Assembly: GCA_947589615.1 (NCBI GenBank)
Contig: CANQBU010000001.1
Coordinates: forward strand, 1-34,866
DNA: 34,866 nt
Direction of reading: 5' to 3'
DNA from: an uncultured Clostridia bacterium
GTDB lineage: Bacteria > Bacillota > Clostridia > Christensenellales > UBA1242
Program-made: the position numbers and the translations under genes
Notes under the pieces: model-generated
The model's database searches: none
What the model saw: only the letters and a program-made list of their open reading frames with translations
Told to the model about the DNA's origin: nothing
In this document: positions 2,229-31,709 of the stretch, one piece after another
Position numbering within the stretch: the stretch's first letter is position 1
Layout: every line of letters starts with the position of its first letter

Positions 2229-3083
2229 TTAAAGGGCATTTAGTATTCGCTCTTTGTAATCTTTTTTATATCGTTCGATGCTTTCAAGCAATTTTTCTTT
2301 TGTGATAAACCCTTGTCTGTAAAGGTCAAGTTCAATGCAGCCATAAGGACCATAATTTTCTTCAAATTCCTTTATGACTTGCGAACACTCCAAAAGAGAG
2401 TCAAAAGTTCCGGTGTCAAACCATTTACATTCCTTTGGCAATTTGATGTTTTTGCCCTTTCCTTCACTTATAAAAGACGAAAGAACATCTGTCATTTCAT
2501 ATTCGCCACGCTCCGAAAGTTGAAGATTTTCAAGTTTTTGGGCGGTTTCTTTTGAATAAATGTAAAGTCCAGTTCCTATTAGATTGGTCTTAGGGTGAGC
2601 GGGCTTTTCTTCCATTGCCACAACTTTGTCGTCCTCGCATTCTACCACGCCAAATCGTTCGGGGTCTTTGACGGGTAAGACAAACATGCATGTGCCAGTG
2701 TTTTTCTCAATGCCTTCCTTTACAAGTTTTTCCATTCCGTCCATAACAAAAATATTGTCGCCAAATAGTAGCAAAAAGTCTTCATTTTTAATAAAGTCTA
2801 TTGCACATTTTACGGCGTCAGCCGTCCCTTTTGGACTTTTTTGCACAAAAAATTGAAAATTTAGCCCTAAATTTGTAAATTTTTCATCAAAAAGTGCTTT
2901 ATATAGTGCTAAATCGCTTGGACTGCAGATAAGGGCGATATCGGTTATTCCGCTTTTAACAAGTAGGCTTACTCCATAATAAATCATTGGTTTGTCGTAA
3001 ATTGGAACTAGCGCTTTTCCATAAACTTCTGTTATAGGTTTAAGACGTGTTGCACCGCCGGCAGTCAATATAACTCCTTTCAT
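2229..3083 (-). CDS. rmlA: Glucose-1-phosphate thymidylyltransferase-like sugar nucleotidyltransferase (RmlA family)
   Basis: Start at MKGVILTAGGATRLKPIT (3083) with GAAAAAGGAG upstream. RmlA-like motifs: G-G-x-x-T-R-L, VPIYDKPMIYY, GDNIF, DPERFGVVE, EEKPAHPKTNLIGTGLYIY, WFDTGTFDSLLE. The 47-codon upstream extension in the ORF track is AT-rich promoter DNA. Confidence 0.82.
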   Translation of the reverse strand: MKGVILTAGGATRLKPITEVYGKALVPIYDKPMIYYGVSLLVKSGITDIALICSPSDLALYKALFDEKFTNLGLNFQFFVQKSPKGTADAVKCAIDFIKNEDFLLLFGDNIFVMDGMEKLVKEGIEKNTGTCMFVLPVKDPERFGVVECEDDKVVAMEEKPAHPKTNLIGTGLYIYSKETAQKLENLQLSERGEYEMTDVLSSFISEGKGKNIKLPKECKWFDTGTFDSLLECSQVIKEFEENYGPYGCIELDLYRQGFITKEKLLESIERYKKDYKERILNAL

Positions 3084-3129
3084 ATTTTCTCCTTTTTCTG
3101 TGTTTTCAATAAGCACATAAATCTTTTTT

Positions 3130-3157
3130 ATTATATCATAATAAGTATTAAAATCAA
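3130..3157 (-). promoter_or_regulatory. Sigma-A-type promoter for the rmlA-like / CYTH-like operon
   Basis: Minus strand reads TTGATT, 16-nt spacer, TATAAT, with an extended -10 (TGaTATAAT). It lies about 45 nt upstream of the ATG at 3083. Confidence 0.5.
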
Positions 3158-3284
3158 AATGTTTAAAACGAACTTGGTCTTGCTTGATATAAATATGTAT
3201 GAAAATGTGTAAAATAGTATGCAAGATAAAAATTTTAGTTATAAATAGTAATAAAAAAATAATATATGCATATATGAAAAGGTA

Positions 3285-18549: not shown

Positions 18550-20586
18550 ATGAGTCAACTTGCATTGAAAAGTATTAATGAATTATTGGGAAAGAATTAT
18601 TTTATTCCCAGTTATCAAAGAGGTTATAGGTGGGAAAAACGTCAAGTTGTCGATTTGCTTGATGACTTGTATTCTTTCATAGGCGACAAAAATAAAGGAG
18701 AAAATTCCTTTTATTGCCTTCAACCAATAGTGGTCAAGGAATGTGATAAGGAAATAGCAAGAGAAACAATAAATTTAAGCAATCTAACTGATGATTGCAT
18801 AGGACCCTGGTTTGAGGTGATAGATGGTCAGCAGCGTCTTACCACATTATATTTGCTTTTTAAATATTTGATGGAAAGTAATGAATTTTGTGATATGGTA
18901 AGAGAGTATGGTGACCTTTATAAAATATTTTACCAGACGCAACATGGCTACAATGAATGTATAGAGAAGCCTCAAATTCCTCGAAGCGAAACTCCCAATG
19001 ATTTTTATATTACAAGGGCGTATGAGGCGATAAAAAATTGGTTTGAATCTTTCAGCGAAAGTAAACAAAAAGAGCATGTTAAATCCTTGTTTAAGACCTT
19101 TTTGTTAAACAATAGCGAATCGTCATCAATTATAAAATGCGGCTATGCACAGGTTATTTGGTATGAAGTGGATAAAGATGTAGACCCGATAAAAACTTTC
19201 ACTCGCCTAAACATAGGGAAAATTCCTCTAAGGAATGCTGAACTTATTAAGGCGTTGTTTTTGCAGAAAAGGGGTAAATCAGTTTCTTCTGATGTTCAAC
19301 AGATAAACATTGCAAAGGAATGGGACCAAATTGAAGCAAGTTTGCAAGAACCTCGATTTTGGGCATTTTTGAACAAGGATTTAAGGGAAATTCCAAATCA
19401 CATTGAGTTTATCTTTGATGTTATATTTGCAGTTGAGGGAAACAAGATAAAGGACGGGCTTAAAGATATAGAATATAAAAAGCTTAGAGAACAAAATCTC
19501 GGCTTAAGCGATAAAAAACTGATGCAAGAAGCAGAAAATTTGGCGGAGGGCAAGTTCAATGATATGTTTGGGACAGACGAGTTTGCATCTTTCAGATTTT
19601 TCAGCACAAAGTTTAAAAATCCAACGCGTCAAGATATTGAAAGCGAATGGAATATGGTGCGTGAATATTATGAGACCTTTTCGGAGTGGCAAAATAATCC
19701 GCTTTGGTATCACTATATTGGCTTTTTAATTTATTGCGATGAGCCAATTATAGATATCTTTAATCTTTACAAGGGCAAAACAAAAAATGAGTTTAAACAA
19801 AGTTTAATAAACAGAATAAAGGAGCGACTGGCGGTTTGGGTTAAAAGCTTAAATGACGGCTTATATGAACTTACAAATGAAAAAGGCGAGCCAGTAATTT
19901 ATAGTAATAAAAATAGAAAAAAATTAAGACAAATTTTGGTGTTATACAATATTGAATACATAATTCAAAAGAATGCACAATTAAAAAAGAGTTATGTTAT
20001 TTTCCCTTTCGACCTATTTAAGGAGCAGCAGTGGGATATAGAGCATGTTGACTCTTTTACAACAAACCCTCTTACTGATAAATGTCAACAAAAGGAATGG
20101 GTGGCTACAAGTTTAAATGGTCTTAAAGACTTTGGGATAAATTATACCGAGACAACGAGAATTTTAAAAGAAGAGAAGGAAAAACTTGAAAGCTTTTTGT
20201 CTGAGGATAATTCCTCAGTAAAAATTGAAGATGTAATGTGGATCTTGTCCAAATTGGCAGATGAATATCTGCCTACCGAAGAGGTCGAAAAGGATATCAA
20301 AAATTCAATCGGCAATCTTACACTACTTAATTCAAGTATAAACAGAAGTTACGGGAATGACATTTTCCCTTTAAAGAAAAGAACTATCACCCAAAAAGAT
20401 GCCGATGGAGAATTCATTCCTATTTGCACTAAAAATGTGTTTTTGAAAAATTTTATCGATGTTAACAATTCTCCAATTTCGTGGAGCGAACGGGATATGA
20501 AATGTTATCAGAAAAATATTATAGAGGTTATCTATAAGTTCTTAAAAAAGGATGGAGAAGGGGGAAATAATGGCAGAGAAATTTAG
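18550..20586 (+). CDS. DUF262 + DUF1524 protein (GmrSD / BrxU-like type IV restriction enzyme family)
   Basis: 678 aa. N-terminal DUF262 / ParB-like motifs IPSYQRGYRWEKRQVVDLLDDL and DGQQRLTTLYLL. C-terminal His-Me finger (DUF1524) motifs WDIEHVDS ... IGNLTLLNSSINRSYGNDIFPLKK. SD AAAGGAGAG. Confidence 0.85.
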   Translation: MSQLALKSINELLGKNYFIPSYQRGYRWEKRQVVDLLDDLYSFIGDKNKGENSFYCLQPIVVKECDKEIARETINLSNLTDDCIGPWFEVIDGQQRLTTLYLLFKYLMESNEFCDMVREYGDLYKIFYQTQHGYNECIEKPQIPRSETPNDFYITRAYEAIKNWFESFSESKQKEHVKSLFKTFLLNNSESSSIIKCGYAQVIWYEVDKDVDPIKTFTRLNIGKIPLRNAELIKALFLQKRGKSVSSDVQQINIAKEWDQIEASLQEPRFWAFLNKDLREIPNHIEFIFDVIFAVEGNKIKDGLKDIEYKKLREQNLGLSDKKLMQEAENLAEGKFNDMFGTDEFASFRFFSTKFKNPTRQDIESEWNMVREYYETFSEWQNNPLWYHYIGFLIYCDEPIIDIFNLYKGKTKNEFKQSLINRIKERLAVWVKSLNDGLYELTNEKGEPVIYSNKNRKKLRQILVLYNIEYIIQKNAQLKKSYVIFPFDLFKEQQWDIEHVDSFTTNPLTDKCQQKEWVATSLNGLKDFGINYTETTRILKEEKEKLESFLSEDNSSVKIEDVMWILSKLADEYLPTEEVEKDIKNSIGNLTLLNSSINRSYGNDIFPLKKRTITQKDADGEFIPICTKNVFLKNFIDVNNSPISWSERDMKCYQKNIIEVIYKFLKKDGEGGNNGREI

Positions 20587-22900
20587 TTTTAAGGATTTGC
20601 TTACACGGCCTATTCAATTGGTCGGCGGGGGAAGCGTAAAAATCGATAAAATCTCAATACCACTTTTGCAACGGGATTATGCTCAAGGCAGAATGTTCTT
20701 TAATGAAAAAACGGGAGAATACAAGTTTAATCTTGCCGGCGAGAAATTTATTGAAGAAATTTTTTCCACTCTTTTATCTTCCGATGACAAGGGGCTTGAA
20801 CTTGACTTTATTTATGGTTCAATTGATGAGGAAAGACCTGAGAAAGATGATGAAAATAAGGGGAATACAAATATTTTAAGCCCCCTTGATGGTCAGCAGC
20901 GCTTGACTACTCTTTTCCTCTTGTATTGGTTTATTGGCGGGGCAGAATTAGATGAAGAAGGCAAGTCAGATTTGTTGACCTCGCTTGAAAAATTTACATA
21001 TTTAACACGGACAAGCTCCAATGTCTTTTGTGCAAGCCTTGTGGAAGAATTGAAGCATTCAAACATTGATTTTAAAGGTGCAGAAGACATCAGTTTGCAA
21101 ATTAAAAACCTCTCATGGTTTCATGATGTATATACTTTAGATCCTACTATTGTGTCAATGCTTAATATGCTAAATAAAATACAGTCGCTGTACAGGGAAA
21201 GAGAATGCCAAAATGTATTTGGCAATTTGGAGAGAATGAAATTTTACATTCTGCCCCTAAAAAATTTTGAACTTACTGAAGAGCTTTATGTAAAAATGAA
21301 TGCTCGCGGCAAGCAATTGACGGATTTTGAAAATTTTAAAGCCGATTTACAAAAGTGGCTGCAATCACTAAACCTTCCAGAGAAGGAGTATCGAAAAAAT
21401 ACCACATTGCCTTATGACATGTATTTTATAAACAAAATGGATAATGAATGGCTACAGTGTCTATGGAAGGCAGGGAATGGAAGCGAAAATAGAAATTTCG
21501 ATTCTCTATTTTTAAAATTCTTCTATGATTATCTTTTAAATTATCATATTTTAGATTATAAAGATAATTATCAAAAACTGGACAAACAAAGTGACTATAA
21601 TGCTTTAAATGAAACTCGATATTTGGGCTTTTCAATCTTTGAAAAATTTTTAAAAAAAGGCTCGATGCTTGATAAGATTGAAATTGTGCTAGACAATATT
21701 TCCCAGCACTATGAAGATATTCTTAAGGCTTGCCAACCGGTGTGGAGCAGTGGAAAAATTCTATTTAATATATTTTCGCAAGATATGCAGTTAAAGGACA
21801 GGACAATATTTTGCGCTTTGGTTTTATATTTGACAAAGTATGGGTATGACGAAAAGGGCTTAAAAAAATGGATGCGTGTCGTATGGAATATTGCTGAAAA
21901 TGCCAACATCGATAGCGTTGCTGTAGTTGTCGGCGTAAACAAATTATTTGCAGAACTTGTGGAATATGCGGGCGATATTTATGCAAATCTTGCCGACGAA
22001 ACAAATATAATAACTTCAACTCAGGCAGAAGAGTTTGTTGCTGAAGAAAGATTAAAAGCCGGGCTTATAATGACTGACCCCGCTTGGGAGGAAAGTCTTA
22101 TCATCGCTGAAGGAAATTCCTTTTTTAGAGGCAATATAAGTTTTCTTTTGCCAGAAGAGGTAGAGGCGAAAGATATTGACAGGGGAGAATTTGAACACCG
22201 CTATGAAATGGCAAAAATATTCTTTGATGAAAAGGGTATCTGTGATGCTTATAGCAAGAATGGTCATCTTTTCCTCAGAGCGCTATTAAGCAGATATGAC
22301 GATTTGGGCAAAATAAAATATCATATCGCGGATAAAGATGAAAGAGAGCATTCTTTAAAACACATGCTTTCATCGGACAAAGTGGTGCGCAGGGCAATTT
22401 ACGAATGGTTTTCACTTGAGGACGAAGATAAAATTCATTCTAAACTTGTCGAAGAAGTGGCAAAGGCTTCTCCTATCAAAGATGTCTTTGACCGAAAACT
22501 CCACGAAGAACTTTACAAGTCAACAAATCTAATAAACTGGATGCAGGAGACTGGGGCAATAAGATATAAAGACGATTGCATTTCAAAGCCAAACAGCCCT
22601 ATTTATCAAATTTATGTTAGGGGTTACAGAAACGAGATAATTAAACGCTTAATTGAAGAGGGTTGGAAATGTAACAATCAGTGCAGCATAAATGAAGGGA
22701 AGGATAAAATTCCATACTTTTGGCCAAGCAGAGAAATTAATGTAATAAAAGAGGAAGCCGATAGGCAAATTATTTGCACATTTGATAGGGAAAATATCAG
22801 AATCGGCGAAGGTCAATATAATTATATAGATAATGTTAAAAGCAAAGATGATATCGATGCTTGCATCGAATGGATAAAAGAGCAAGAAAAGAAGTTGTAA
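20570..22900 (+). CDS. Second DUF262 domain protein with a long C-terminal region of unknown function
   Basis: I place the start at MAEKFSF (20570), with GAAGGGGGA upstream, overlapping the previous gene by 17 nt. Motifs IPLLQRDYAQG and DGQQRLTTLFLLYW. I could not recognise an E-H ... GNL-LL ... N nuclease motif with an intact His. Confidence 0.78.
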   Translation: MAEKFSFKDLLTRPIQLVGGGSVKIDKISIPLLQRDYAQGRMFFNEKTGEYKFNLAGEKFIEEIFSTLLSSDDKGLELDFIYGSIDEERPEKDDENKGNTNILSPLDGQQRLTTLFLLYWFIGGAELDEEGKSDLLTSLEKFTYLTRTSSNVFCASLVEELKHSNIDFKGAEDISLQIKNLSWFHDVYTLDPTIVSMLNMLNKIQSLYRERECQNVFGNLERMKFYILPLKNFELTEELYVKMNARGKQLTDFENFKADLQKWLQSLNLPEKEYRKNTTLPYDMYFINKMDNEWLQCLWKAGNGSENRNFDSLFLKFFYDYLLNYHILDYKDNYQKLDKQSDYNALNETRYLGFSIFEKFLKKGSMLDKIEIVLDNISQHYEDILKACQPVWSSGKILFNIFSQDMQLKDRTIFCALVLYLTKYGYDEKGLKKWMRVVWNIAENANIDSVAVVVGVNKLFAELVEYAGDIYANLADETNIITSTQAEEFVAEERLKAGLIMTDPAWEESLIIAEGNSFFRGNISFLLPEEVEAKDIDRGEFEHRYEMAKIFFDEKGICDAYSKNGHLFLRALLSRYDDLGKIKYHIADKDEREHSLKHMLSSDKVVRRAIYEWFSLEDEDKIHSKLVEEVAKASPIKDVFDRKLHEELYKSTNLINWMQETGAIRYKDDCISKPNSPIYQIYVRGYRNEIIKRLIEEGWKCNNQCSINEGKDKIPYFWPSREINVIKEEADRQIICTFDRENIRIGEGQYNYIDNVKSKDDIDACIEWIKEQEKKL

Positions 22901-23006: not shown

Positions 23007-23978
23007 TTAATTTTGAATATATAATTTTTCTTGTTTTAAGAGTGGATAAGATTTTAAACTGTCATTATTCAAATCTTCTTTATTCATATCCACTCCTACA
23101 ATTTGAGAGTTGTTGTAGGTGGTGTAATAGTAAATGCATTTGTCGGTGTTGCAGCATGAAGAATAAATGGTATGCTCAAAGCCCTTCTCAACCTTGCAAC
23201 AGCCTTTTTGTTGTTCGACAGAGGTTAAGATGTGGAAAAACTGACTGACGCTTTCCACTTCGCTGCTTCCTTGTAAAGAGTTTAATTTTGTAAATGCCGC
23301 CTTTACAAATCGCGATGCCGAAGACAGGTCTCCGGGCAACCCTATTCCGCCCATGCCTCGACTATATGGCGTAAGATTTAAGTTTTCGCAAAATCTGTTA
23401 ATTGGCTCATTGCGTGAAACATTCATGTAATTGCTAAGATGGATAAGATGATAGTCAAAAGTCGGGTTGTTTGTGAGAATTCCTACGGGGTTATCATAAA
23501 CTTTAAGCCCCTCGCTTAAAGGCTCAACTACGATGCAATCTTTTTTGTCGGCAATAATCCAGTGCAAAGGTGAGTGAGGTAATTCATTTGAAAAATCTTC
23601 ATCACAAATATTTAAGTTTGAAAGGATTTTCCGTGCCTCGCTTACATCTTTACATTTTGCCAAAATGTAAGGGATAAACTCAAATGGTGCGACATTATCT
23701 TTTGAGCGAATTTTCTTTGAATAAAAGGCGTTCTTGGGGAAATTTAATCCCGCGATGCTAAGCCCTTTTTCGTTTGTTGCGTCATAATAAAGAGGGTAGT
23801 CATTTTGCACAAATGCCATGCCAATCATCGCATAGTGCTTGTCACATTTACGCATATGACGAAAATCGAACGGGAAGTTTCGAGGGGTGATTGTCACCGT
23901 CTCATTGTATGAAAACTCATAGTCCAAATTTCGTCCAAAATAAAAATCTTTACTAAAAAAAGTTGCTGCTGTGCACAT
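23007..23978 (-). CDS. Choloylglycine hydrolase / bile salt hydrolase family (Ntn linear amide C-N hydrolase)
   Basis: 323 aa. Begins MCTAATF (nucleophile Cys2), followed by FGRNLDYEFSYNETVTITPRNFPF, which is typical of the BSH/PVA family. SD AAGGAG. Confidence 0.88.
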   Translation of the reverse strand: MCTAATFFSKDFYFGRNLDYEFSYNETVTITPRNFPFDFRHMRKCDKHYAMIGMAFVQNDYPLYYDATNEKGLSIAGLNFPKNAFYSKKIRSKDNVAPFEFIPYILAKCKDVSEARKILSNLNICDEDFSNELPHSPLHWIIADKKDCIVVEPLSEGLKVYDNPVGILTNNPTFDYHLIHLSNYMNVSRNEPINRFCENLNLTPYSRGMGGIGLPGDLSSASRFVKAAFTKLNSLQGSSEVESVSQFFHILTSVEQQKGCCKVEKGFEHTIYSSCCNTDKCIYYYTTYNNSQIVGVDMNKEDLNNDSLKSYPLLKQEKLYIQN

Positions 23979-24079
23979 AAAAAACTCCTTATATAAAATT
24001 ATAGCAAATCATTTTCAAAAATGAAAACAAATTGCAAACAAATCTACACTTGAAATTAAAAGTTGTCGGAACAAAGGGT

Positions 24080-24108
24080 TTAACAAAATTTGCAGTTTTA
24101 CATAAAAT
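24080..24108 (+). promoter_or_regulatory. Candidate promoter for the collagen-like gene
   Basis: TTAACA (24080-24085), 17-nt spacer, TAAAAT (24103-24108). It lies 22 nt upstream of the ATG at 24131 and just before the SD GAGGAG. Confidence 0.5.
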
Positions 24109-24130
24109 GTATTCTGTGAGGAGAAAACAA

Positions 24131-24715
24131 ATGATTTGCAATAACTTTCAAAACAACTGGCAATGTCAAAATCTTTATCCTTCTCCTACAGGTATATGTC
24201 CTCCTCAGACACCTACTGGAATAAGCATTGTAGGACCTACTGGACCTACAGGTGCAACTGGTGCGACAGGTGCTACAGGACCAACTGGTGCTACAGGAGC
24301 AACTGGTGCCACAGGTGCAACAGGGAGTTCTGCTTTAAGTTCGATTGCCTTTTTCACCGCGCCAAGCGTAACAAACGCAGAGCCAACACTTTTGCTTGAA
24401 AACTCATTTCCTATAGGTCAGACAGATATAACATTTGCTGGAGGGAATGGGGTTAATTTGACGACAGGCACATATATCATGAGATTTGGCTCGACTGTGA
24501 CAAGCACAAACGGGACTTTGCCTACCATATCCATTTCGGTTGATAATGTGGTCGAAAGCGGAACGATAAGAACGGGGGTTGGATTTGGCTCTGCAAATCT
24601 GACCGGTGACGCATTAATAACCATAAACACTCCTTCGCTTTTGACATTCAATGTAACGGTCGCTCCCGAACTAACTTACGATGAAAACTTTTTAATAATT
24701 ACAAAATTGGAATAA
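24131..24715 (+). CDS. Collagen-like triple-helix repeat protein (BclA-like) with a Cys-rich N-terminus and a beta-rich C-terminal domain
   Basis: I place the start at MICNNFQ (24131), with GTGAGGAGA upstream; the ORF-track TTG start at 24032 has no SD. Ten uninterrupted G-x-T triplets (GPTGPTGATGATGATGPTGATGATGATGAT), followed by a roughly 125-aa Thr/Ser/Gly/Asn-rich domain. Confidence 0.82.
   Translation: MICNNFQNNWQCQNLYPSPTGICPPQTPTGISIVGPTGPTGATGATGATGPTGATGATGATGATGSSALSSIAFFTAPSVTNAEPTLLLENSFPIGQTDITFAGGNGVNLTTGTYIMRFGSTVTSTNGTLPTISISVDNVVESGTIRTGVGFGSANLTGDALITINTPSLLTFNVTVAPELTYDENFLIITKLE
24233..24322 (+). repeat. GXT collagen-like coding microrepeat (10 triplets of 9 nt each)
   Basis: ggacctact ggacctaca ggtgcaact ggtgcgaca ggtgctaca ggaccaact ggtgctaca ggagcaact ggtgccaca ggtgcaaca. 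This stretch is locally GC-rich compared with its surroundings. Confidence 0.9.
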
Positions 24716-25163: not shown

Positions 25164-25194
25164 AAATATGTATGAGATGCTAGGAGGAATATTG

Positions 25195-26106
25195 ATGTTT
25201 CAAAAAAAGAAAAGGCAGGTAATTAAGTTTGAGCAAAACTTATGCCATGCAAAAGTTGATGACAATGATATTTTGTTTGTCCGCGTTTCCGACCAAATCA
25301 CAGATAAAGATGCGTTATTGGAAGTCCCATTAACCCATATTGCGTATGTGATAAAGGGTGGCGGATATGGCAAAGTGTATAAGAGCGGAACATATCCCGT
25401 TTTTGAGGATAACAAGGAAGTTAAAAATTGGCAACAGGGAATTTCTGTTGAAATAATTTACATGCCAAAAGACCCAAATGTTCCAATCAAATGGGGGACA
25501 AACGAAAAGATAAAGTATCGCGATGAGGTAAGCGGAAAGGTTGTGGGAGTTGCCGCGCATGGTGTATTCGATGTCTCAATTTCAAATCCCGAACAATTTT
25601 ACAGAAAGGTTGTTGGGGCAAGGCGGGAATTCAGCCTCAGAGAATTTCAAGACAGATTTAGTGCCAATGTTTTAAGTGAGTTCACCGCAATATTTTTTCA
25701 AACGATTGATGAACTTAAATTGACAAGTGACAAATTTGATGCAAATAAGAAAAGCATTCAGGAAAAAACGGGGAGACTGCTAAACAGAATATTTGAAGAT
25801 GAATGGGGAGTAAGTTTAAATAATTTCATCATTCAATACATAGGCGTTTCTGATATGGAGGTGGCAACTCGTGAAGAGGAAAAGCCTATTGAAAAACAAG
25901 AAGAGAAGCCAGTTCAAGCAAGATTTTGCCCATACTGCGGGGCACAGGTTCGTGAAGATGATGTCTTTTGCTCAAAGTGCGGAAAGAAATTGGAGAAAGA
26001 CAGCATAACTTGCCCATCATGTGGCAAAAGCAATAATATTTATGCCCAATTCTGCGTATATTGCGGCAAAAAAATAAGCGAGGGGAATCATGTGGAAAAA
26101 GAATAA
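25195..26106 (+). CDS. SPFH / Band_7_1 (YdjI-like) domain protein fused to a C-terminal double zinc ribbon
   Basis: I place the start at MFQKKKRQ (25195), with TAGGAGGA upstream. The N-terminal domain matches the Band_7_1 pattern (...VIKGGGYGKVYKSGTYPVF..., IKWGTNEKIKYRDEVSGKVVGVAAHGVFDVSISNPEQFYRKVVG). After an EEKP-rich linker come two C-x2-C...C-x2-C ribbons (CPYCG..CSKCG and CPSCG..CVYCG). Confidence 0.68.
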   Translation: MFQKKKRQVIKFEQNLCHAKVDDNDILFVRVSDQITDKDALLEVPLTHIAYVIKGGGYGKVYKSGTYPVFEDNKEVKNWQQGISVEIIYMPKDPNVPIKWGTNEKIKYRDEVSGKVVGVAAHGVFDVSISNPEQFYRKVVGARREFSLREFQDRFSANVLSEFTAIFFQTIDELKLTSDKFDANKKSIQEKTGRLLNRIFEDEWGVSLNNFIIQYIGVSDMEVATREEEKPIEKQEEKPVQARFCPYCGAQVREDDVFCSKCGKKLEKDSITCPSCGKSNNIYAQFCVYCGKKISEGNHVEKE

Positions 26107-26407
26107 TGACAAAGGTTTAAATGACAGAAACTTGATTGAAGAATGCGAAAAGGCAATAGACACTTTAATAATTCTCGGCGAGGCAGACGATGAACTTGTT
26201 TCAAATTTGCGAGTTATTAAAGAAAAAGTCAAATATCTTGTTCCAAGCAATGATGATAAGATTTACGAATTTGACAGGAGAATTAAAAATCTTATTGACG
26301 ACATGCGAATAGCGCTTGTCAAGGCGGACAGAGAGTCATTGAAGAAAATTAAACTGATTTTGGCGGATTTGAGGCTTGCAATAGTAGAGCGAAATTCAAG
26401 GATTTAA
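26090..26407 (+). CDS. Small (105 aa) predicted all-helical protein of unknown function
   Basis: The ATG overlaps the previous gene by 17 nt, with GAGGGGA upstream. Heptad-like charged/hydrophobic pattern. No family recognised. Confidence 0.55.
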   Translation: MWKKNNDKGLNDRNLIEECEKAIDTLIILGEADDELVSNLRVIKEKVKYLVPSNDDKIYEFDRRIKNLIDDMRIALVKADRESLKKIKLILADLRLAIVERNSRI

Positions 26408-26417
26408 AGGTGAAGTT

Positions 26418-27008
26418 ATGTGGTTTTTTAAAAGTAAATATGAAAAGTTATCTCGAGAAGAAGTGGTCGATGCGATTTGCAAACTTGAAAGTGAGACAAA
26501 AAGTATTGAAGAAGGGTTGACCTCAAAGCAGGAAGAGATAGACGAACTTATGGAAAAAGGGAGGACAGAAAAGAATAAAGAAGTCAAACTTTTCTATGCC
26601 AAAAAGATAAATGCACTTAAAGCGGAAAGAGAACAAAGTGTTCAAAGGGCATTGTATCTTATGTATAATGTTCAACTTATGAACAAACTTAAAACCTCAA
26701 TAGATGACAATCAATTCTTTAAAACCTCTTCAAAAATTCCTCTTAATAAGATGCTGGGCGACCAAAAAGCACTTGCAAAATTTTTAAACAAAACGCTGGG
26801 GACAAGGACAAAGGCGGAAGATGTGCTTACGTCAGCAGATGAAGTTTTCAAAACGCTTGAAGAGTCATACGATAAAAATGAAAGCATTTATGGGGTCAAT
26901 GACCAAGATGACGCACTGCTTTCTATGTTTGAGACAGAGGAGCAGTTAAACGAAGAAGAAGAGATGTTTACAGAAAGTGAACAAAAAGCCGGCAGAGGCG
27001 AAAATTAA
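26418..27008 (+). CDS. ESCRT-III / Snf7-like (PspA-Snf7 superfamily) coiled-coil protein, paralog 1
   Basis: 196 aa. The N-terminus MWFFKSKY resembles the MWSSLFGW membrane-insertion motif of yeast Snf7. The helical hairpin region aligns by eye with Snf7 (AICKLESE...KGRTEKNKEVKLFYAKKINALKAEREQ versus AIVRLREH...KGNKVMAKNALKKKKTIEQ). Acidic C-terminal tail. Fold assignment not verified. Confidence 0.55.
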   Translation: MWFFKSKYEKLSREEVVDAICKLESETKSIEEGLTSKQEEIDELMEKGRTEKNKEVKLFYAKKINALKAEREQSVQRALYLMYNVQLMNKLKTSIDDNQFFKTSSKIPLNKMLGDQKALAKFLNKTLGTRTKAEDVLTSADEVFKTLEESYDKNESIYGVNDQDDALLSMFETEEQLNEEEEMFTESEQKAGRGEN

Positions 27009-27022
27009 AAGGAGAAAATTTT

Positions 27023-27580
27023 ATGTCAGCAAATAAAGAAATTGAAAAAAGAATGTTAATTAAGAGAACGATTTCATCAATGGAAAAACAAATCCAAAGA
27101 CTTGAAAATCAAAAGAAAACCTATATTGATGCGGGCAGACAGGCAAAGCAAAAAGGGTTAACAGCACAATATAACCTTGCTTTATCAGGGCTTAGAATGA
27201 CGATAAGCCAGCAGCGTCGAGTTTATGAAATGAAACTCAATTTTGAGATAACTTCGCAAATGAAGGATATGGCAAAGATGACCACCGATTTCCTTTCGGG
27301 AATGAGTTCTTTAAGTAAAGATATGATGAAACTCACAAAAGAGTCGGAGTTTAACAAAGTCCAGAAGCAATTCTCTGAAGCGATGGTTGGAATGGAAGTT
27401 CAAACTGAAAGAATGGAGGATTTCCTTGAAGAAACTCAGTCAACCTTTTCAAGCAACCTCAATAATGAAGAGGAGAGAAGCGAACTTGATGCCATGATGA
27501 CAAACGAGGCGGCAATCGGAACGGGAGTCGATGGCGAGATTGAAAAAGAACTTGAAGAACTTAAGAAAAAAATGTTTTAA
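27023..27580 (+). CDS. ESCRT-III / CHMP2(Vps2)-like coiled-coil protein, paralog 2, with a MIM1-like C-terminal helix
   Basis: 185 aa. By-eye parallels to CHMP2A: QIQRLENQKKT versus RERQKLETQEKK; AKQKGLTAQYNLALSGLRMTISQQRR versus AKQGQMDAVRIMAKDLVRTRR; QKQFSEAMVGMEVQTERMEDFLEE versus MMEFERQAEIMDMKEEMMNDAIDD; terminal EIEKELEELKKKMF versus DLEERLKNLRRD. SD AAAGGAG. Confidence 0.6.
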   Translation: MSANKEIEKRMLIKRTISSMEKQIQRLENQKKTYIDAGRQAKQKGLTAQYNLALSGLRMTISQQRRVYEMKLNFEITSQMKDMAKMTTDFLSGMSSLSKDMMKLTKESEFNKVQKQFSEAMVGMEVQTERMEDFLEETQSTFSSNLNNEEERSELDAMMTNEAAIGTGVDGEIEKELEELKKKMF

Positions 27581-27594
27581 TTTAAAGGAGAACT

Positions 27595-28908
27595 ATGCCT
27601 GATATCAGTTTTATGAATGAAATGTATGAAATTTATTATCGCAAAGCAAAGGAGTGCTATGACAGAAAGGACTTAATGCTTGCAAAGCGATATTATTTTC
27701 TTGCAGCAGAACAAATGTTAAAAATGGCTCAAAACAGCGAGAAACAACTCCAAAAGGCAAGATTCAGTCGGGCTAAAAGCCTTATAGATATGGCGGAGAG
27801 TATTCAAGCGGGAAAGAGAAAAATAGCAAAAGATGAGCCACAGGAAGAAGAGGTCAGCGTTTCACAGAATGAAAAAATATCTCTTGAAGAGGCACTTTCA
27901 AGACTTGCAAGGCTTGAAGGGCTTGAAAAAGTAAAAAGACAGGTTTGCGATTGGATTGACCAAATCAAAGTTTTTCAGATGAGGAAGGAAAGAGGAATGT
28001 CCGTTCCTGACATTTCCTATCACATGGTGTTCACTGGTAATCCGGGGACTGGAAAAACCACGCTCGCAAGACTTATGGCACAAATCTATTGCGCGCTTGG
28101 GATTTTAAGCAATGGAAATCTTGTTGAAGTTGATAGAAGTGGACTGGTTGCGGGCTATATCGGTCAAACTGCCGTAAAAACAAAGGAAGCAATCAAAAAA
28201 GCATATGGCGGAGTGCTTTTTATTGATGAGGCATATTCGCTTGCAAACGGCAATACAAACGATTTTGGTCAGGAAGCAATCGAAGCAATTTTAAAGGAGA
28301 TGGAAGACAAGCGAGATGACCTTGTTGTAATTGTTGCGGGATATGACGAGCCGATGGAAAAGTTTATAGCTTCAAACCCAGGTTTAAAATCAAGATTTAA
28401 AAATTTCTTCCATTTTGATGATTATAATGGTGAGCAATTATTCAATATTTTCCAGAAATTCTGCGAAGAAAATGAATATAGCATTGACTATTCGGCGGCG
28501 GAAGTTTTGAAAGAATATTTCCAATATCTATATGACCACAGAGATAAAAATTTCGGCAATGCCAGAGATGTGAGAAATTTCTTTGAAAATGTTGTGACAA
28601 TTCAATCCAAGCGAGTTGTTAATCTGCCTCAGCCATCGAATGAGGATTTACAATTAATAAAAATCGAGGACTTGCCAAGCTATGTAGAAGAGTTATTGAG
28701 AAATCAAGAAAATGACTATGACAGTTACGATTTTGACGATGGCGAGCCAGAAGAGAATGATATTCCTGAAATTGAAACGCTAGATGGGATTGAAAACTCC
28801 GAAGAGAGGAGCGAGTTAGGAGAGAATGATGATAAAGAAGAAATAGACGAAAACAATAAAGAGACAAATAAGCAAACAGAGGACATTTCGACCAAAAACA
28901 AAAAATAA
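27595..28908 (+). CDS. AAA+ ATPase of the SpoVK/CbbX/EccA clade with a MIT-like (TPR-like helical) N-terminal domain and an acidic C-terminal tail
   Basis: 437 aa. Walker A GNPGTGKTT (28036-28062) and Walker B VLFIDEAYSL. Also VVIVAGYDEPMEKFIASNPGLKSRF. Near-collinear with B. subtilis SpoVK as I recall it (HMIFKGNPGTGKTTVAR...GGILFIDEAYSL...AGY...NPGLQSRF). N-terminus YRKAKECYDRKDLMLAKRYYFLAAEQMLKMAQ...RAKSLIDMAESIQ resembles the Vps4 MIT helices. Confidence 0.9.
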   Translation: MPDISFMNEMYEIYYRKAKECYDRKDLMLAKRYYFLAAEQMLKMAQNSEKQLQKARFSRAKSLIDMAESIQAGKRKIAKDEPQEEEVSVSQNEKISLEEALSRLARLEGLEKVKRQVCDWIDQIKVFQMRKERGMSVPDISYHMVFTGNPGTGKTTLARLMAQIYCALGILSNGNLVEVDRSGLVAGYIGQTAVKTKEAIKKAYGGVLFIDEAYSLANGNTNDFGQEAIEAILKEMEDKRDDLVVIVAGYDEPMEKFIASNPGLKSRFKNFFHFDDYNGEQLFNIFQKFCEENEYSIDYSAAEVLKEYFQYLYDHRDKNFGNARDVRNFFENVVTIQSKRVVNLPQPSNEDLQLIKIEDLPSYVEELLRNQENDYDSYDFDDGEPEENDIPEIETLDGIENSEERSELGENDDKEEIDENNKETNKQTEDISTKNKK

Positions 28909-28925: not shown

Positions 28926-31709
28926 ATGAAAGAAAGCACAAGATATTTGAGATGTAAAAACTGTGAAGGGGAAATGGATGTGCGTGAGGCAAAAAATGGG
29001 GTGCTAACCTGCCCATACTGCCGCACGATTGTTGTTTTGCCACGCAACGACTCATCTGATAAGACAAAAGCATATTTGAACAGCGGGAATCAAAACCTCG
29101 AATTGGGGCGATTTGATGAAGCTTACATAATGTTTGGAAAGGCGGTCGAAGAAAATGCGCAAGAGCCAGAAGGTTATTTCGGAATGGCACTTTCTAAGGC
29201 AAAAATCCAGTATTTAAAGGATTTGGTCAACAATAAACTTCAACCTATTTGCTTTGAGATAACTGAGAATAAATTCACCGATGATAAAAATTATCAAAAG
29301 GCGCTAGAACTTTCAAATCCCGATCAGAAGGAAATTTACGAGGAAAAAGGTTGTGCAATCGATAACATAAAAAGTAAATTTTTTCAGCTTAAAAGAAACA
29401 ATGTCGAGTATGACACATTTATATGCTGTAAGGTCACAAACGAAAATGGCGGAAACACGCAAGACAGCATGAATGCACTTAAAATTTATCATGAACTTAA
29501 AGATGCGGGATATAAGCCATTTTATTCGGAAGAGATTTTGAGGAATTTTGTGGGTGAAGACTATGAGGCAAATATTCTCTATGCCCTTTATTCAAGTGGA
29601 AGCATGCTTATGGTTTGCAGTGATGAGGAATATTTGCAAACAAAGTGGGTCAAAAATGAGTATACTCGCTTTATAACCTTACTCGAGCAAAAGGAAAAAC
29701 AAAGAGGAAGCATTGCATTTGTCTACAACGGCAAGCCTATTGAAGAATTTCCAGGCATTCAAGGCAAAGTTCAGGGGATAGATTTTTCAAAATTTAACGC
29801 ACTAAATCAAATAATTTCATTTGTAGAAAAATTTGCGGGGTCAAATAGATTTCTGGATTTTCAAAGAAAGGAATATGGCAAGAATAATGTTCAAAAGAAA
29901 AAGACTATAAAACGAGAAATTCAAAAACGCAATTTAAGTGTATCAGTAAGCGAAGCGGTCTCAATTTCAGACGAAGCAAAATTAAGGAATGCCCAAAAAC
30001 TGCTTGAGAAAGGGGATTTTGAAAATGTTTGCAATTTCTGCAATGAGATTTTAATGAGCAATAAATTCTACGGCAAAGCCTACTGGACATTGTTTTTGGC
30101 ACAAAATAAATGCAGAAGCAATGAGGAATTTATAAAGTCCACCACGCCAGTTGCAAACTTTTCTGACTTTGAGAAGGCAATCTCTGCAACAAGTGATAAA
30201 AGCGAGAGAGAAAAATATTATCAGTGCCTTAAAAATCGTATTCTTGAAAGTGGCGAGAAGGGGGATTTTGATGAATTTGTCGTTCTCCCTGAAGTAGAAG
30301 AGAAAGACCTGGCGGAAGCAATAGATAAAGTTTATGAAACTGCCAAAGAGCATGTCGATAAAGACCTTTTTGAAGCGGCAATTTCAGTGGAAAAGCACAC
30401 AAACAGATATGTAAGAATGAATCTTGGCTTTTTAAAACAATTGCCTATTGAGCAAAGAAAGCCATATTATGAGAATATTTTAAATGTCGATGCTGCAAAT
30501 CCCGAAGCACTATACGAAAATTTCAATATTGATAACAATCTATTAAGTGATGAGGCGGTTTTCGAATTTTACAGTGACAAGAAAAATCATGACACAATTG
30601 AAAACACATTATTTGCCTATGGCTTTAATAAATTTGCTTCCGATGACCTTAATAGAATTGTCCAAAATGGCGGCGACACAAAAAAGGGTTGCAGTATCTA
30701 TGACCTTATATTAAGTATGGTTCCAAAAGGCAAAAACAAAATTTTCGCCTACTATTTAAGCCAGGCAATAAGTTTCCTTTTTGCGGGAGAAAGGAAAAAA
30801 GGTCAATTTTATGTTGATTTCGAGCAACTTGAAAAATATAATAACGCTCTTATTTCAGTCGATCAATATAACTGCAATTGTTATGTAAATCGAATGCTTA
30901 TTGATAATAAGATAAAAAATCCGCTAGAACTTATGGACTGCCGGTCACTTTACGATTTTGCCGATTTCCGCCTTGCGGTCAACACATATGCCGAGCGTTA
31001 TCCAAATAAGACTAATGAATATATGCAATATGATGATGAACTCAAAGAGATAAAACAAATCCTTGCCACGCCAAAAATAAAACAGTATGTGCTTGACAAT
31101 TATGTCCCGAAAATGGAGTGGCTAAGTGGGAAGGCAAGGACGGACATTATTGAAATGCTGGACGGGAAAATGCAGAAGAGCGTAGGAAGTATACTCCGAA
31201 AAAATGAGTGCAAAGAATTAAAGGAACTTTGCAGTCTGCAAAAAGACGTCACAAAAGATGAAGACTTCGTTATGGCAAGAGATATTGCAAATGTGTTGTC
31301 AAGTCAAAAACTTCCTTCAAAAACACCTACAGAAACGGTTTCTTCACAGGCTGCCGCCCAAGCGGAAGAGGAGCCTGCACCTAAAGAAAGTGAGAGCCCA
31401 GATGAGGGGCAGACAAAAGATAAACAAGAAGTGCTAGAGCAAAAAGAGAGCGACAGGGAAATTAACGAAGTCACTCAAAATAATGAAGAGCAGAAAGAGG
31501 AAGAAAAAGAGGAAATAAGACTTGTAGATGAGTTAAATTCATTAAGCGAGCGCCAGCCTCAAGCGGCAAAAACAAATTATGAAACGCGAAGAAAAGAGGA
31601 AAGGCAGAGAATGAGAAAATTGACAATAAAAACAATATTATGGACCCTTTATGGCGTTGGACTCTTTTTCGCGATTGGAACACTTTTACTTTTTATTCTT
31701 TTAAAATAA
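28926..31709 (+). CDS. Tail-anchored multidomain protein: N-terminal zinc ribbon, TPR-like helices, TIR domain, long helical-repeat region, acidic low-complexity linker, C-terminal TM
   Basis: 927 aa. Zinc ribbon CKNC..x17..CPYC. TIR-like block at about residues 160-305 (nt 29403-29840): YDTFICCKV..., AGYKPFYSEEIL..G.DYEANILYALYSSGSMLMVCS...TKWVKNEYTRF, with the candidate catalytic Glu at 29658-29660. C-terminal TM ILWTLYGVGLFFAIGTLLLFILL (about 31632-31706). Confidence 0.78.
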   Translation: MKESTRYLRCKNCEGEMDVREAKNGVLTCPYCRTIVVLPRNDSSDKTKAYLNSGNQNLELGRFDEAYIMFGKAVEENAQEPEGYFGMALSKAKIQYLKDLVNNKLQPICFEITENKFTDDKNYQKALELSNPDQKEIYEEKGCAIDNIKSKFFQLKRNNVEYDTFICCKVTNENGGNTQDSMNALKIYHELKDAGYKPFYSEEILRNFVGEDYEANILYALYSSGSMLMVCSDEEYLQTKWVKNEYTRFITLLEQKEKQRGSIAFVYNGKPIEEFPGIQGKVQGIDFSKFNALNQIISFVEKFAGSNRFLDFQRKEYGKNNVQKKKTIKREIQKRNLSVSVSEAVSISDEAKLRNAQKLLEKGDFENVCNFCNEILMSNKFYGKAYWTLFLAQNKCRSNEEFIKSTTPVANFSDFEKAISATSDKSEREKYYQCLKNRILESGEKGDFDEFVVLPEVEEKDLAEAIDKVYETAKEHVDKDLFEAAISVEKHTNRYVRMNLGFLKQLPIEQRKPYYENILNVDAANPEALYENFNIDNNLLSDEAVFEFYSDKKNHDTIENTLFAYGFNKFASDDLNRIVQNGGDTKKGCSIYDLILSMVPKGKNKIFAYYLSQAISFLFAGERKKGQFYVDFEQLEKYNNALISVDQYNCNCYVNRMLIDNKIKNPLELMDCRSLYDFADFRLAVNTYAERYPNKTNEYMQYDDELKEIKQILATPKIKQYVLDNYVPKMEWLSGKARTDIIEMLDGKMQKSVGSILRKNECKELKELCSLQKDVTKDEDFVMARDIANVLSSQKLPSKTPTETVSSQAAAQAEEEPAPKESESPDEGQTKDKQEVLEQKESDREINEVTQNNEEQKEEEKEEIRLVDELNSLSERQPQAAKTNYETRRKEERQRMRKLTIKTILWTLYGVGLFFAIGTLLLFILLK

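Follow-up and report, generated by a model that had tools for sequence, protein, structure and literature searches.

A probable ESCRT-III-like operon with a dedicated AAA+ ATPase in gut Clostridia

Two adjacent genes in a plus-strand operon

The window analyzed here is the whole of a 34,866-nucleotide stretch of low GC content (about 36%) from an uncultured Clostridia bacterium (contig CANQBU010000001.1). It carries two adjacent genes, here termed paralog 1 (P1) and paralog 2 (P2), within a tightly packed plus-strand run of six genes that forms an operon. An earlier interpretation made from the letters alone (the sequence-only reading) had described them as adjacent, mutually divergent Snf7-family-like genes, and both open reading frames (ORFs) were confirmed at exactly the positions it named, 26418 to 27008 for P1 and 27023 to 27580 for P2. 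[quoted passage not shown] The proposal is carried by the likeness of the P2 family to Snf7-type proteins, by a conserved and family-specific helical motif at the end of P2, and by an adjoining AAA+ ATPase gene with a conserved N-terminal domain. The features of the operon are as follows.

25168 to 26106, plus strand: SPFH/Band-7 protein with a C-terminal double zinc ribbon (Pfam; zinc ribbons at residues 254 to 300, nucleotides 25927 to 26067)
26090 to 26407, plus strand: S105, a small helical protein of 105 residues, conserved in the cassette, invariably placed between the SPFH gene and P1
26418 to 27008, plus strand: P1, 196 residues, starting MWFFKSKY, a probable highly diverged ESCRT-III-like protein
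26418 to 26441, plus strand: P1 N-terminal hydrophobic-basic motif MWFFKSKY, a candidate membrane-inserting helix alpha0 (conservation)
26886 to 26942, plus strand: P1 C-terminal motif IYG-x5-DD-x-LL-x-M-F-E-T-E-E, residues 157 to 175, conserved columns in the acidic tail
27023 to 27580, plus strand: P2, 185 residues, very likely a Snf7-family ESCRT-III protein (Pfam, hhalign, Foldseek)
27533 to 27577, plus strand: terminal 15-residue stretch of P2, GEIEKELEELKKKMF, at its C-terminal end
27530 to 27577, plus strand: MIM1-like C-terminal amphipathic helix of P2, DGEIEKELEELKKKMF, residues 170 to 185 (motif conservation)
27595 to 28908, plus strand: AAA+ ATPase of the SpoVK/CbbX/EccA type, 437 residues (Pfam, NCBIfam, and PDB matches)
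27595 to 27807, plus strand: N-terminal helical MIT/TPR-like domain of the ATPase, about 70 residues, residues 1 to 71 (alignment A5, profile searches)
28926 to 31709, plus strand: accessory TIR protein, 927 residues (Pfam TIR_2)

The gap between P1 and P2 is 14 nucleotides. Shine-Dalgarno sequences lie 7 to 9 nucleotides 5' of each gene, GGTGA for P1 and AGGAG for P2, and AGGAG also precedes the ATPase gene that lies 3' of P2.

A cassette shared by Clostridia species

Homologues of both proteins were collected at an E value of at most 1e-3 from a collection of 5.8 billion proteins, which gave 311 clusters for P2 and 433 for P1. All of the informative source names were metagenome-assembled genomes (MAGs) of gut Clostridia, and the proteins were annotated as hypothetical. 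When one genome per GTDB species was scanned, 47 proved to carry P2 relatives; the titles of almost all of these name Clostridia, Christensenellaceae, or related gut MAGs. P1 and P2 lay side by side or in the same locus in 47 species-level genomes of Clostridia. The conservation of the two families, together with this co-location, indicates that both ORFs are real genes and not chance reading frames. The nearest public relative was a rabbit-gut Clostridia MAG (CANQKH010000001.1), whose P2 orthologue is 95% identical.

The gene order SPFH-zinc ribbon, S105, P1, P2, AAA was retained in about 40 of the 47 loci. Three loci, designated L048 to L050, were the most divergent; their order was rearranged (P2-AAA-SPFH-...-P1 in L048 and L049, P1-P2-AAA-SPFH-TIR in L050), with the same families still grouped. 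The flanks differed between genomes, the 297 flanking genes falling into 230 clusters. These observations of kept order and co-occurrence within unrelated surroundings suggest that the five genes constitute one portable module. Integrases or recombinases were found near some cassettes, and the accessory genes varied in position and copy number. No cassette relatives were detected in phage, plasmid, or IMG/VR collections, and a phage or plasmid origin was therefore rejected. A role in sporulation, which the SpoVK-like ATPase might bring to mind, was also considered; its support from context amounted to a single locus beside spo0A. NCBIfam scans of P1 and P2 returned chance-level matches only.

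P2 resembles Snf7 and CHMP proteins more than PspA

Two alignments were used for P2, one of close relatives (A1) and one of 31 full-length homologues of 34 to 76% identity (A4). The P2 of the window matched the Pfam Snf7 family (PF03357) over profile positions 6 to 153 of 171, with an E value of 5.4e-4 and a score of 20.1 bits, which is below the gathering score of 27.3. Snf7 was the sole recurrent Pfam family among the relatives, being found in 11 of 40 close homologues and in 21 of the 31 A4 members (best E value, 5.9e-7), and PF03357 was precomputed for homologues P0090, P0355, and P0372 to P0376. P2 thus acquires its Snf7 assignment by transitive homology through its relatives rather than from the window sequence alone. 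No match to PspA_IM30 at an E value of at most 0.1 was obtained for any P2 member scanned, comprising the 40 close homologues and the 31 members of A4. The possibility that P2 is a generic coiled coil was rejected, as Snf7 was the only family to recur and reversed-sequence controls failed.

Alignment of profiles with hhalign gave a similar picture. Compared with five eukaryotic ESCRT-III reference sequences, which may contain errors and serve as a rough control, the P2 family aligned end to end with probabilities of 63 to 77% and E values of 2e-6 to 7e-5. The corresponding probability was 0.4% for Escherichia coli PspA and 1.4% for a reversed sequence.

AlphaFold2 models of P1 and P2 were built with homologues of 64 to 95% identity, and both were of low confidence. 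The P2 model, with a mean predicted local distance difference test (pLDDT) score of 60, placed helices at residues 3 to 44, 47 to 104, 107 to 147, 149 to 165, and 169 to 184. When this low-confidence model was compared with solved structures by Foldseek, the best 12 matches were all ESCRT-III proteins, namely CHMP1B, CHMP2A/CHMP3, the IST1-CHMP1B copolymer, Asgard ESCRT-IIIB, Shrub, and Snf7, with an E value of 2.6e-3 for CHMP1B and a template modeling (TM) score of 0.79 to Shrub across 107 columns. Vipp1 and PspA structures ranked below ESCRT-III in the same list. The N-terminal half of P2 carries a charge of +9 (isoelectric point, 10.1) and the C-terminal half a charge of -11 (isoelectric point, 4.4), and the family means were +8.8 and -10.9. 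Such a split between a basic N-terminal and an acidic C-terminal half is the classical asymmetry of ESCRT-III proteins, and it holds across the family.

Given the profile, structure-match, and charge evidence, we place P2 in the Snf7 branch of the superfamily and consider it very likely to be a Snf7-type ESCRT-III protein. The sequence-only reading had held P2 to be closer to Snf7/CHMP than to canonical PspA, and this was borne out by the Pfam, hhalign, and Foldseek comparisons, in which P2 gave more than generic coiled-coil matches. It had further likened P2 to CHMP2/Vps2; orthology with that specific type was not established. By analogy with the Snf7 family, P2 would be predicted to form filaments on membranes.

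A different explanation would make the locus a highly diverged PspA/Vipp1-type stress module of the pspA-ydjGHI kind, with the likeness to Snf7 arising from convergence or long-branch noise. The Band_7_1 and zinc-ribbon partner of the operon has the architecture of YdjI, which accompanies pspA in Firmicutes, and Vipp1 and PspA did occur lower in the Foldseek lists of both proteins. Starts of the MGLF type, which are found in this family as described below, are also typical of the helix alpha0 of PspA and Vipp1. Against this stand the consistent absence of PspA_IM30 at an E value of at most 0.1 (31 P2 and 43 P1 family members) beside the 21 P2 relatives that matched Snf7, and hhalign probabilities of 0.4 to 0.5% to E. 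coli PspA. The Foldseek search with P2 ranked eukaryotic and archaeal ESCRT-III above all Vipp1 and PspA entries, and proteins of about 190 residues that end in a MIM-like helix differ from PspA and Vipp1 with their extended alpha5. We consider this explanation highly improbable and retain the assignment of P2 to the Snf7 branch.

Divergent P2 homologues in A4 (P0356, P0358, P0371 to P0378, and that of L049) start with MGLFKSK or MSLFKN. The MGLFKSK-type motif has been lost from P2 of the window clade and is kept by P1.

P2 ends in a conserved MIM1-like motif

The sequence-only reading had noted that the end of P2 resembles the MIT-interacting motif 1 (MIM1) helix. The last 16 residues, DGEIEKELEELKKKMF, run from Asp170 through Ile173, Glu176, Leu177, Leu180, and Lys181, giving the motif D/E170-xx-I173-xx-x-L177-xx-L180-K181. 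This matches the MIM1 consensus (D/E)xxLxxRLxxL(K/R) at five of six positions, Ile standing in for Leu at one of them; the position of the consensus Arg is occupied by Glu176. Within A1, I173, E176, L180, and K181 were invariant and L177, K182, and M184 nearly so, and the hydrophobic positions persisted in A4. Between this tail and the core of P2 lies an acidic linker of low conservation, an arrangement also seen in ESCRT-III tails.

A relaxed MIM1-like pattern ending no more than six residues from the C-terminus was then sought in the P2 homologues and in the other ORFs of at least 150 residues from the same loci. It was present at the C-terminus of 38 of 50 P2 homologues and of none of the 710 other ORFs. 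Across 259,000 residues encoded by the ORFs of related loci, 83 instances of the relaxed motif were counted, and all 38 of those ending within six residues of a C-terminus belonged to P2 homologues. The MIM1-like tail of P2 is thus both conserved and specific to its family. MIT domains are three-helix bundles that bind the helical MIMs of ESCRT-III tails (PMC9477494), and the P2 tail is a candidate docking site for the adjoining ATPase's N-terminal domain.

P1 is probably a very diverged relative

For P1, an alignment of close relatives (A2) and a diverse one of 43 sequences with 21 to 59% identity (A3) were built. An exhaustive profile search found relatives of P1 in just 110 representatives among 1.84 billion, and the P1 family is therefore narrow. 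Neither Snf7 nor PspA_IM30 was matched in Pfam by any of 40 close and 43 diverse members, and profiles of the family matched no ESCRT-III protein among the PDB sequences.

The AlphaFold2 model of P1 had a pLDDT of 63 overall and of 70 to 85 over residues 10 to 100. Helices were predicted at residues 13 to 50, 54 to 96, 109 to 127, 133 to 151, and 162 to 191, that is, a hairpin of 38 and 43 residues followed by three shorter helices. The best Foldseek match of this low-confidence model was archaeal CdvB2 (9s98_A; E value, 0.066; probability, 0.99; TM score, 0.47 to 0.49), and the list also contained bMERB, SNX, and designed helical bundles.

The description of P1 and P2 as mutually divergent paralogs was upheld as to divergence, BLASTP of P1 against P2 giving no match. 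Paralogy was not established by sequence: hhalign with shallow alignments (effective number of sequences, 1.7) found nothing, and deeper alignments of the two families gave an E value of 0.012 and a probability of 3.6%. Against the ESCRT-III references, P1 gave an E value of 0.0027 and a probability of 11%. When P2 and the references were merged into one profile, the probability was 12% in local alignment and 47%, with an E value of 3e-5, in global alignment. Reversed controls gave E values of 0.11 to 0.18 and probabilities of at most 0.5%, and the comparison with E. coli PspA gave 0.4 to 0.5% for the two families. The alignments were collinear across 149 to 195 columns, with the N-terminal motif of P1 aligned with LFGW of Snf7 and its hairpin tip EKGRT...YAKKI aligned with TKGN...AKNAL.

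Both ends of P1 are conserved. The N-terminal consensus is M-[GWC]-[LFP]-F-K-x-x-K, with F4 present in at least 90% of A3, and MGLFKSK-type starts are also found in divergent P2 homologues and in the S105 family. MGLF or MGIF starts are typical of helix alpha0 of CHMP3, PspA, and Vipp1. The aromatic and basic start that the sequence-only reading had compared with the membrane-inserting terminus of yeast Snf7 is thus a family trait, and it may form a membrane-inserting helix. The acidic tail noted for P1 was likewise found, the C-terminal half having a charge of -10 (family mean, -12.8). Within this tail, I157, Y158, G159, D164, D165, L167, L168, F171, E172, and E174 were invariant or near-invariant in A2, and the motif IYG-x5-DD-x-LLAMFE was retained in most of the diverse family. 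This motif is a candidate partner-binding or autoinhibitory element.

One interpretation of these results is that P1 is no ESCRT-III protein at all but an unrelated helical adaptor, comparable to a CdvA-like or Vta1-like cofactor, and that P2 alone polymerizes. The absence of Snf7, PspA, and PDB ESCRT-III matches, the probability of 3.6% against the P2 family, the mixed Foldseek list in which all matches lie above an E value of 0.06, and the narrowness of the family would all agree with this. Such an adaptor is at odds with the collinear profile alignments, whose E values of 0.0024 to 3e-5 contrast with those of the reversed controls, and with predicted hairpin lengths of 38 and 43 residues, which match those of ESCRT-III. 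It is also at odds with the hairpin tip, where KG is followed by YAKKI in alignment with the KGN...AK tip of Snf7, with the acidic C-terminal half, with an N-terminal motif common to divergent P2 proteins, and with CdvB2 as the best structural match. We regard an unrelated adaptor as a possibility of some substance, though the odds are against it, and conclude that P1 is probably a very diverged ESCRT-III-like subunit. The Snf7-like character ascribed to P1 by the sequence-only reading accordingly finds no echo in Pfam or PDB sequence matches and weak agreement in the hhalign and CdvB2 results, and P1 cannot be assigned to the Vps20/32/60 class.

The small protein S105 gave no Pfam, NCBIfam, or PADLOC match. 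The N-termini of its family read MC/G-x-F-KKK, like those of P1, and hhalign of S105 against the N-terminal half (hairpin) of the P1 family gave a probability of 40% and an E value of 3e-4, compared with 0.2% for the reversed control. These data suggest that S105 may be a hairpin-only relative of P1 and a third subunit.

An ATPase with an exchanged motor and a retained N-terminal domain

The gene directly 3' of P2, in the window and in nearly all loci, encodes an AAA+ ATPase, which the sequence-only reading had not typed. Pfam assigned AAA (E value, 5.9e-19) and AAA_lid_6 (1.8e-17), and NCBIfam assigned spore_V_K (TIGR02881; 1.2e-85), EccA (1.2e-71), and CbbX (3.1e-71); the best PDB matches were CbbX (9e-55) and EccA1 (6e-49). 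The Walker A motif GNPGTGKT (nucleotides 28036 to 28059) and the Walker B motif VLFIDEA (nucleotides 28213 to 28233) are both intact. Pfam and NCBIfam found neither a Vps4_C nor an AAA_lid_3 signature in the window ATPase, which is of the SpoVK/CbbX type and not Vps4. It is a short form, with a single AAA domain and an acidic tail of low complexity, that only its closest relatives share, those of L004, L005, and L007. Most orthologues (L001, L002, and L006 among them) are of about 690 residues with two AAA domains.

In L048 to L050, the gene after P2 encodes a single classical AAA protein (PF00004; 6e-39) with AAA_lid_3 and a weak Vps4_C match, which in L048 and L050 had E values of 0.005 to 0.02. 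An assignment of the L050 protein as specifically Vps4 was rejected: its nearest solved relatives were the D2 domain of Cdc48 and katanin, and because Vps4 was absent from these lists, it is labeled no more precisely than Cdc48/Vps4-like.

Alignment A5 showed that the same N-terminal domain of about 70 residues is carried by the SpoVK-type motors and by the classical AAA proteins of L048 to L050 (L048, 7692 to 8864; L049, 8562 to 9716; L050, 4643 to 5803). Its consensus is ...YETFxLYYxKAKExxxxGDxxLAKRYYxLAAEQMLKxAKESxGELQKARFxRAKSxxExAExI. The domain profile aligned weakly but over its full length with an MIT domain, that of chitin synthase 1 (2mpk; E value, 0.09), and Pfam found TPR_8 in 6 of 18 members and MIT in 1 of 18, at an E value of 0.024. 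The sharing of this domain by two motors points to a recognition module that was kept when the motor was swapped, as would be expected if the domain reads the tails of P1 and P2. Docking of the N-terminal domain on these tails may thus be the function for which it was retained. The ATPase gene with its conserved MIT-like domain after P2 makes plausible the idea, put forward in the sequence-only reading, that P2 is an ATPase recruiter.

A protein of 276 residues on a short metagenomic contig (L003, 2672 to 3502) has the MIT-like N-terminal domain followed by LRR_5 repeats and not by AAA. This is either a real fusion or an assembly chimera.

SPFH, TIR, and protease partners

The SPFH protein matched Band_7_1 (1.4e-15), Zn_Ribbon_1 (2.9e-14), and DZR (8.6e-12) in Pfam, and its gene belongs to the cassette in about 40 of the 47 loci, the rearranged ones included. 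It has the architecture of Bacillus subtilis YdjI and stands beside an ESCRT-III-superfamily gene; the likeness is one of architecture. By this analogy, it is a candidate membrane recruiter.

The TIR protein has an N-terminal zinc ribbon (nucleotides 28953 to 29021), TPR, a TIR domain at residues 178 to 293 (TIR_2; 1.3e-9), a long helical and acidic region, and a C-terminal transmembrane anchor (nucleotides 31635 to 31703). Homologues occurred in about 30 of the 47 loci, in variable positions and sometimes in two copies. The motif W-V-K-N-E lies at nucleotides 29646 to 29660, and W-V-x-N-E was found in 29 of 30 homologues; we take it to be the WxxxE motif that holds the catalytic Glu of SARM1-type NADase TIRs. 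The catalytic Glu was placed tentatively, by motif conservation, as a phmmer search of the TIR domain against the PDB gave no TIR match. This conservation suggests that the TIR protein is catalytically competent, with NADase activity.

A zinc-ribbon trypsin-like serine protease gene lies beside the cassette in 14 of the 47 genomes (for example, L015, 6777 to 7628; L023, 10824 to 11585; L047, 10396 to 11127; and 11 other loci), that of the window excepted. The N-terminal zinc ribbon of the protease resembles that of the TIR protein. The TIR protein and the protease would be accessory output or cargo components, and their presence suggests that the module answers membrane damage or infection.

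These partners raise the leading alternative as to role, namely that the cassette is a TIR-based anti-phage or conflict system, in which the effector would be a TIR NADase or a protease, with the ATPase, the SPFH protein, and the helical proteins serving as its sensor and regulator. The Snf7-like fold would then have been co-opted as a signaling filament or membrane-damage sensor, not as a general remodeling machine. The TIR_2 protein with W-V-x-N-E in about 30 of the 47 loci, the protease in 14, accessory genes that vary in position and copy number, unrelated flanks with integrases or recombinases in some cases, and two GmrSD genes 2.3 kb upstream are consistent with such a system. The ATPase also matched weakly the anti-phage ATPase IetA, along with TRIP13 and other AAA models of PADLOC-DB 2.0. 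These ATPase matches were the only ones to any PADLOC model beyond chance: P1, S105, and the TIR protein had none, P2 (PtuB, Csm2) and the SPFH protein (REase_II) had matches at chance level (E values of 0.004 to 0.05), and no catalogued anti-phage system was matched among the components. The cassette was not found in the phage, plasmid, and viral-contig collections, and several loci with the five-gene core (L019, L021, L036, and L037 among them) have neither TIR nor protease within their 8-kb flanks. An immune system of this kind would leave the assignment of P2 to ESCRT-III untouched and alter the biological role only. We consider it rather unlikely and continue with the membrane-remodeling module as the preferred model.

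Proposed mechanism

In the model, the SPFH-zinc ribbon protein would mark or sense a membrane site and recruit the subunits, as YdjI does for PspA. P1, perhaps with S105, would insert MWFFKSKY into the membrane and there nucleate the polymer or hold it in place. The basic alpha1-alpha2 hairpin of P2 would polymerize on the membrane together with P1 and leave the MIM-like helix exposed. The AAA+ ATPase would then dock on the C-terminal tails through its MIT-like, three-helix-type N-terminal domain and use ATP to extract subunits, so that the polymer is remodeled or recycled, as by Vps4. The TIR protein or the protease would be the output. The division of labor that the sequence-only reading had suggested, with P1 as membrane binder and P2 as ATPase recruiter, would be accommodated by this scheme, in which polymerization, membrane binding, tail docking, and ATP-driven disassembly are predicted steps and the biological role is likewise a proposal.

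Several observations weigh against the model. The Pfam score of the window P2 lies below the gathering threshold, the ESCRT-III reference sequences may contain errors, and profiles of both the P1 and the P2 family found zero ESCRT-III matches among PDB sequences. Both structural models are of low pLDDT (60 and 63), and no Foldseek match reached an E value of 1e-3; for P1, the failure to match Snf7 or PspA_IM30 and the unrelated helical proteins in its Foldseek list add to this. The MIM1 Arg is replaced by Glu in the P2 tail, the MIT assignment of the ATPase N-terminal domain rests on E values of 0.02 to 0.09, and the motor lacks the signatures of Vps4. The TIR and protease partners, the variable flanks, and the nearby GmrSD genes would fit an immune role without membrane remodeling. 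Finally, the evidence for the model is computational at every step.

Taken as a whole, the sequence-only reading was right about P2 and its tail, plausible though unproven for P1, and incomplete in that it covered neither the type of the ATPase nor the other genes of the operon.

Other genes of the window

Two adjoining genes for GmrSD-type (DUF262/DUF1524) type IV restriction endonucleases, at 18550 to 20586 and 20552 to 22900, form a defense element 2.3 kb upstream of the cassette. A choloylglycine (bile salt) hydrolase family gene lies at 23007 to 23978 on the minus strand (CBAH; E value, 2e-99), which fits a gut organism. The ORF at 24032 to 24715 encodes a collagen-like GxT/GAT triplet repeat (Pfam Collagen; 1.6e-5) that recalls exosporium or BclA-like proteins; the start called for it, a TTG, may be incorrect. 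Giant genes at 5685 to 11846 (2053 residues) and 11859 to 17027 (1722 residues) encode repetitive surface-type proteins, the first with Big_2 and a hyaluronate-lyase N-terminal beta domain and the second with 10 MBG_2 and 3 YDG domains. A NUDIX hydrolase gene is found at 1114 to 1527, with a CYTH-domain gene on the opposite strand (1640 to 2239, minus) and an adjoining nucleotidyl transferase gene (2229 to 3224, minus).

Significance

ESCRT systems with both ESCRT-III and Vps4 have been described as "confined to archaea and eukaryotes" (PMC10936438). A Vps4-like ATPase has been said to "appear absent in bacteria," with the regulation of bacterial ESCRT-III-like polymers left open (PMC7619361). 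The operon conflicts with these reviews in that a Snf7-type subunit, a MIM-like tail, and an adjoining MIT-like AAA+ ATPase occur together in 47 gut Clostridia species. It opens a bacterial case of ATP-driven turnover of ESCRT-III to direct test, and the carriage of one recognition domain by two different motors is a natural experiment. P1 and P2 are small and easily expressed, although the source organisms are uncultured. In this module, ESCRT-III-like proteins are tied to SPFH scaffolds, a link known also from B. subtilis and methanogens, and, unexpectedly, to effectors of the TIR and protease kinds, a combination that hints at a branch of bacterial immunity concerned with membrane integrity.

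A bolder hypothesis, which we hold tentatively and would not favor at present, is that gut Clostridia carry a complete, self-contained Snf7-type ESCRT-III machine wired to TIR and protease effectors. If true, the machine would comprise two to three co-polymerizing subunits, an SPFH-zinc ribbon recruiter, and a recycling ATPase that reads the tails through its MIT-like domain, the recognition domain having been transplanted between Cdc48/Vps4-like and SpoVK-like motors. Membrane damage or infection would be repaired or turned into NAD+ depletion or proteolysis. Such a machine would be a bacterial counterpart of ESCRT-III/Vps4, either gained from archaea or handed down within an ancient bacterial lineage.

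Comparison with known systems

The closest parallel is with archaeal and eukaryotic ESCRT-III and Vps4 (CdvB/CdvC, Asgard ESCRT-IIIA/IIIB, Snf7, and CHMP1 to CHMP7). P2 is like these proteins in Snf7 profile and structure matches, and shares with them a basic hairpin and an acidic tail, as well as a helical MIM-like motif at the C-terminus, in which the Arg of the MIM1 consensus has become Glu. Further points of likeness are two to three differing subunits encoded side by side and an AAA+ gene directly next to them, with an N-terminal domain of three-helix type; in L048 to L050, the motor is a single classical AAA with weak Vps4_C. In contrast, the host here is bacterial (Clostridia), the motor is of the SpoVK/CbbX/EccA type and has two AAA domains and about 690 residues in most relatives, and the cassette is without ESCRT-I/II, winged-helix, and CdvA genes, SPFH-zinc ribbon and TIR or protease genes being attached instead.

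In B. subtilis, YdjI (Band-7 plus zinc ribbon) is coupled with pspA in Firmicutes (PMC11237479) and is needed for the membrane localization of PspA (PMC8581546); this recruitment of PspA is the source of the recruitment step in our model. The pspA-ydjGHI operon resembles the present one as a Firmicute operon that joins an ESCRT-III-superfamily gene to a Band-7 protein with C-terminal zinc ribbons. It differs in that the partner here is of the Snf7 type and not PspA, that there are two to three helical subunits and not one, and that a dedicated AAA+ ATPase is present; no homologues of YdjG or YdjH (TPM) were seen here.

Proteins with SPFH, coiled-coil, and zinc-ribbon segments (SPFH-CC-ZnR) accompany ESCRT-III and Vps4 in the "Meth_adaptin" loci of methanogens (Makarova et al. 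2024, PMC10936438), and by architecture their genes parallel the SPFH-zinc ribbon gene of the cassette. Those loci are archaeal and include adaptin-appendage, GOLD, and ProX genes, which are absent here. A link to them by horizontal transfer would be speculation.

The core and lid of the ATPase (AAA and AAA_lid_6; E values of 1e-71 to 1e-85) are like those of EccA, CbbX, and SpoVK. EccA itself carries an N-terminal helical domain of the TPR type. The N-terminal domain here is different in being a single unit of about 70 residues that is shared with a different AAA clade, and the genomic partners encode ESCRT-III-like proteins, in place of genes for type VII secretion, Rubisco, or sporulation.

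Occasional bacterial Snf7-clade proteins, some beside AAA+ ATPases, were described by Ravi et al. (2024, PMC11237479), who proposed ATP-dependent membrane remodeling. The contexts in that study are Snf7 with a transmembrane segment beside ABC transporter or OmpA genes, an RND fusion in Actinobacteria, and PspA with Snf7 in Deltaproteobacteria and Bacteroidetes; neither Clostridia nor an operon with an SPFH-zinc ribbon protein, an MIT-like SpoVK-type ATPase, and TIR appears in its text or in the supplement consulted. The literature searched contained no description of the P1/P2 operon. What is new is a probable bacterial ESCRT-III/AAA+ module whose motor is not Vps4, whose recruiter would be YdjI-like, and whose accessories are a TIR protein or a protease.

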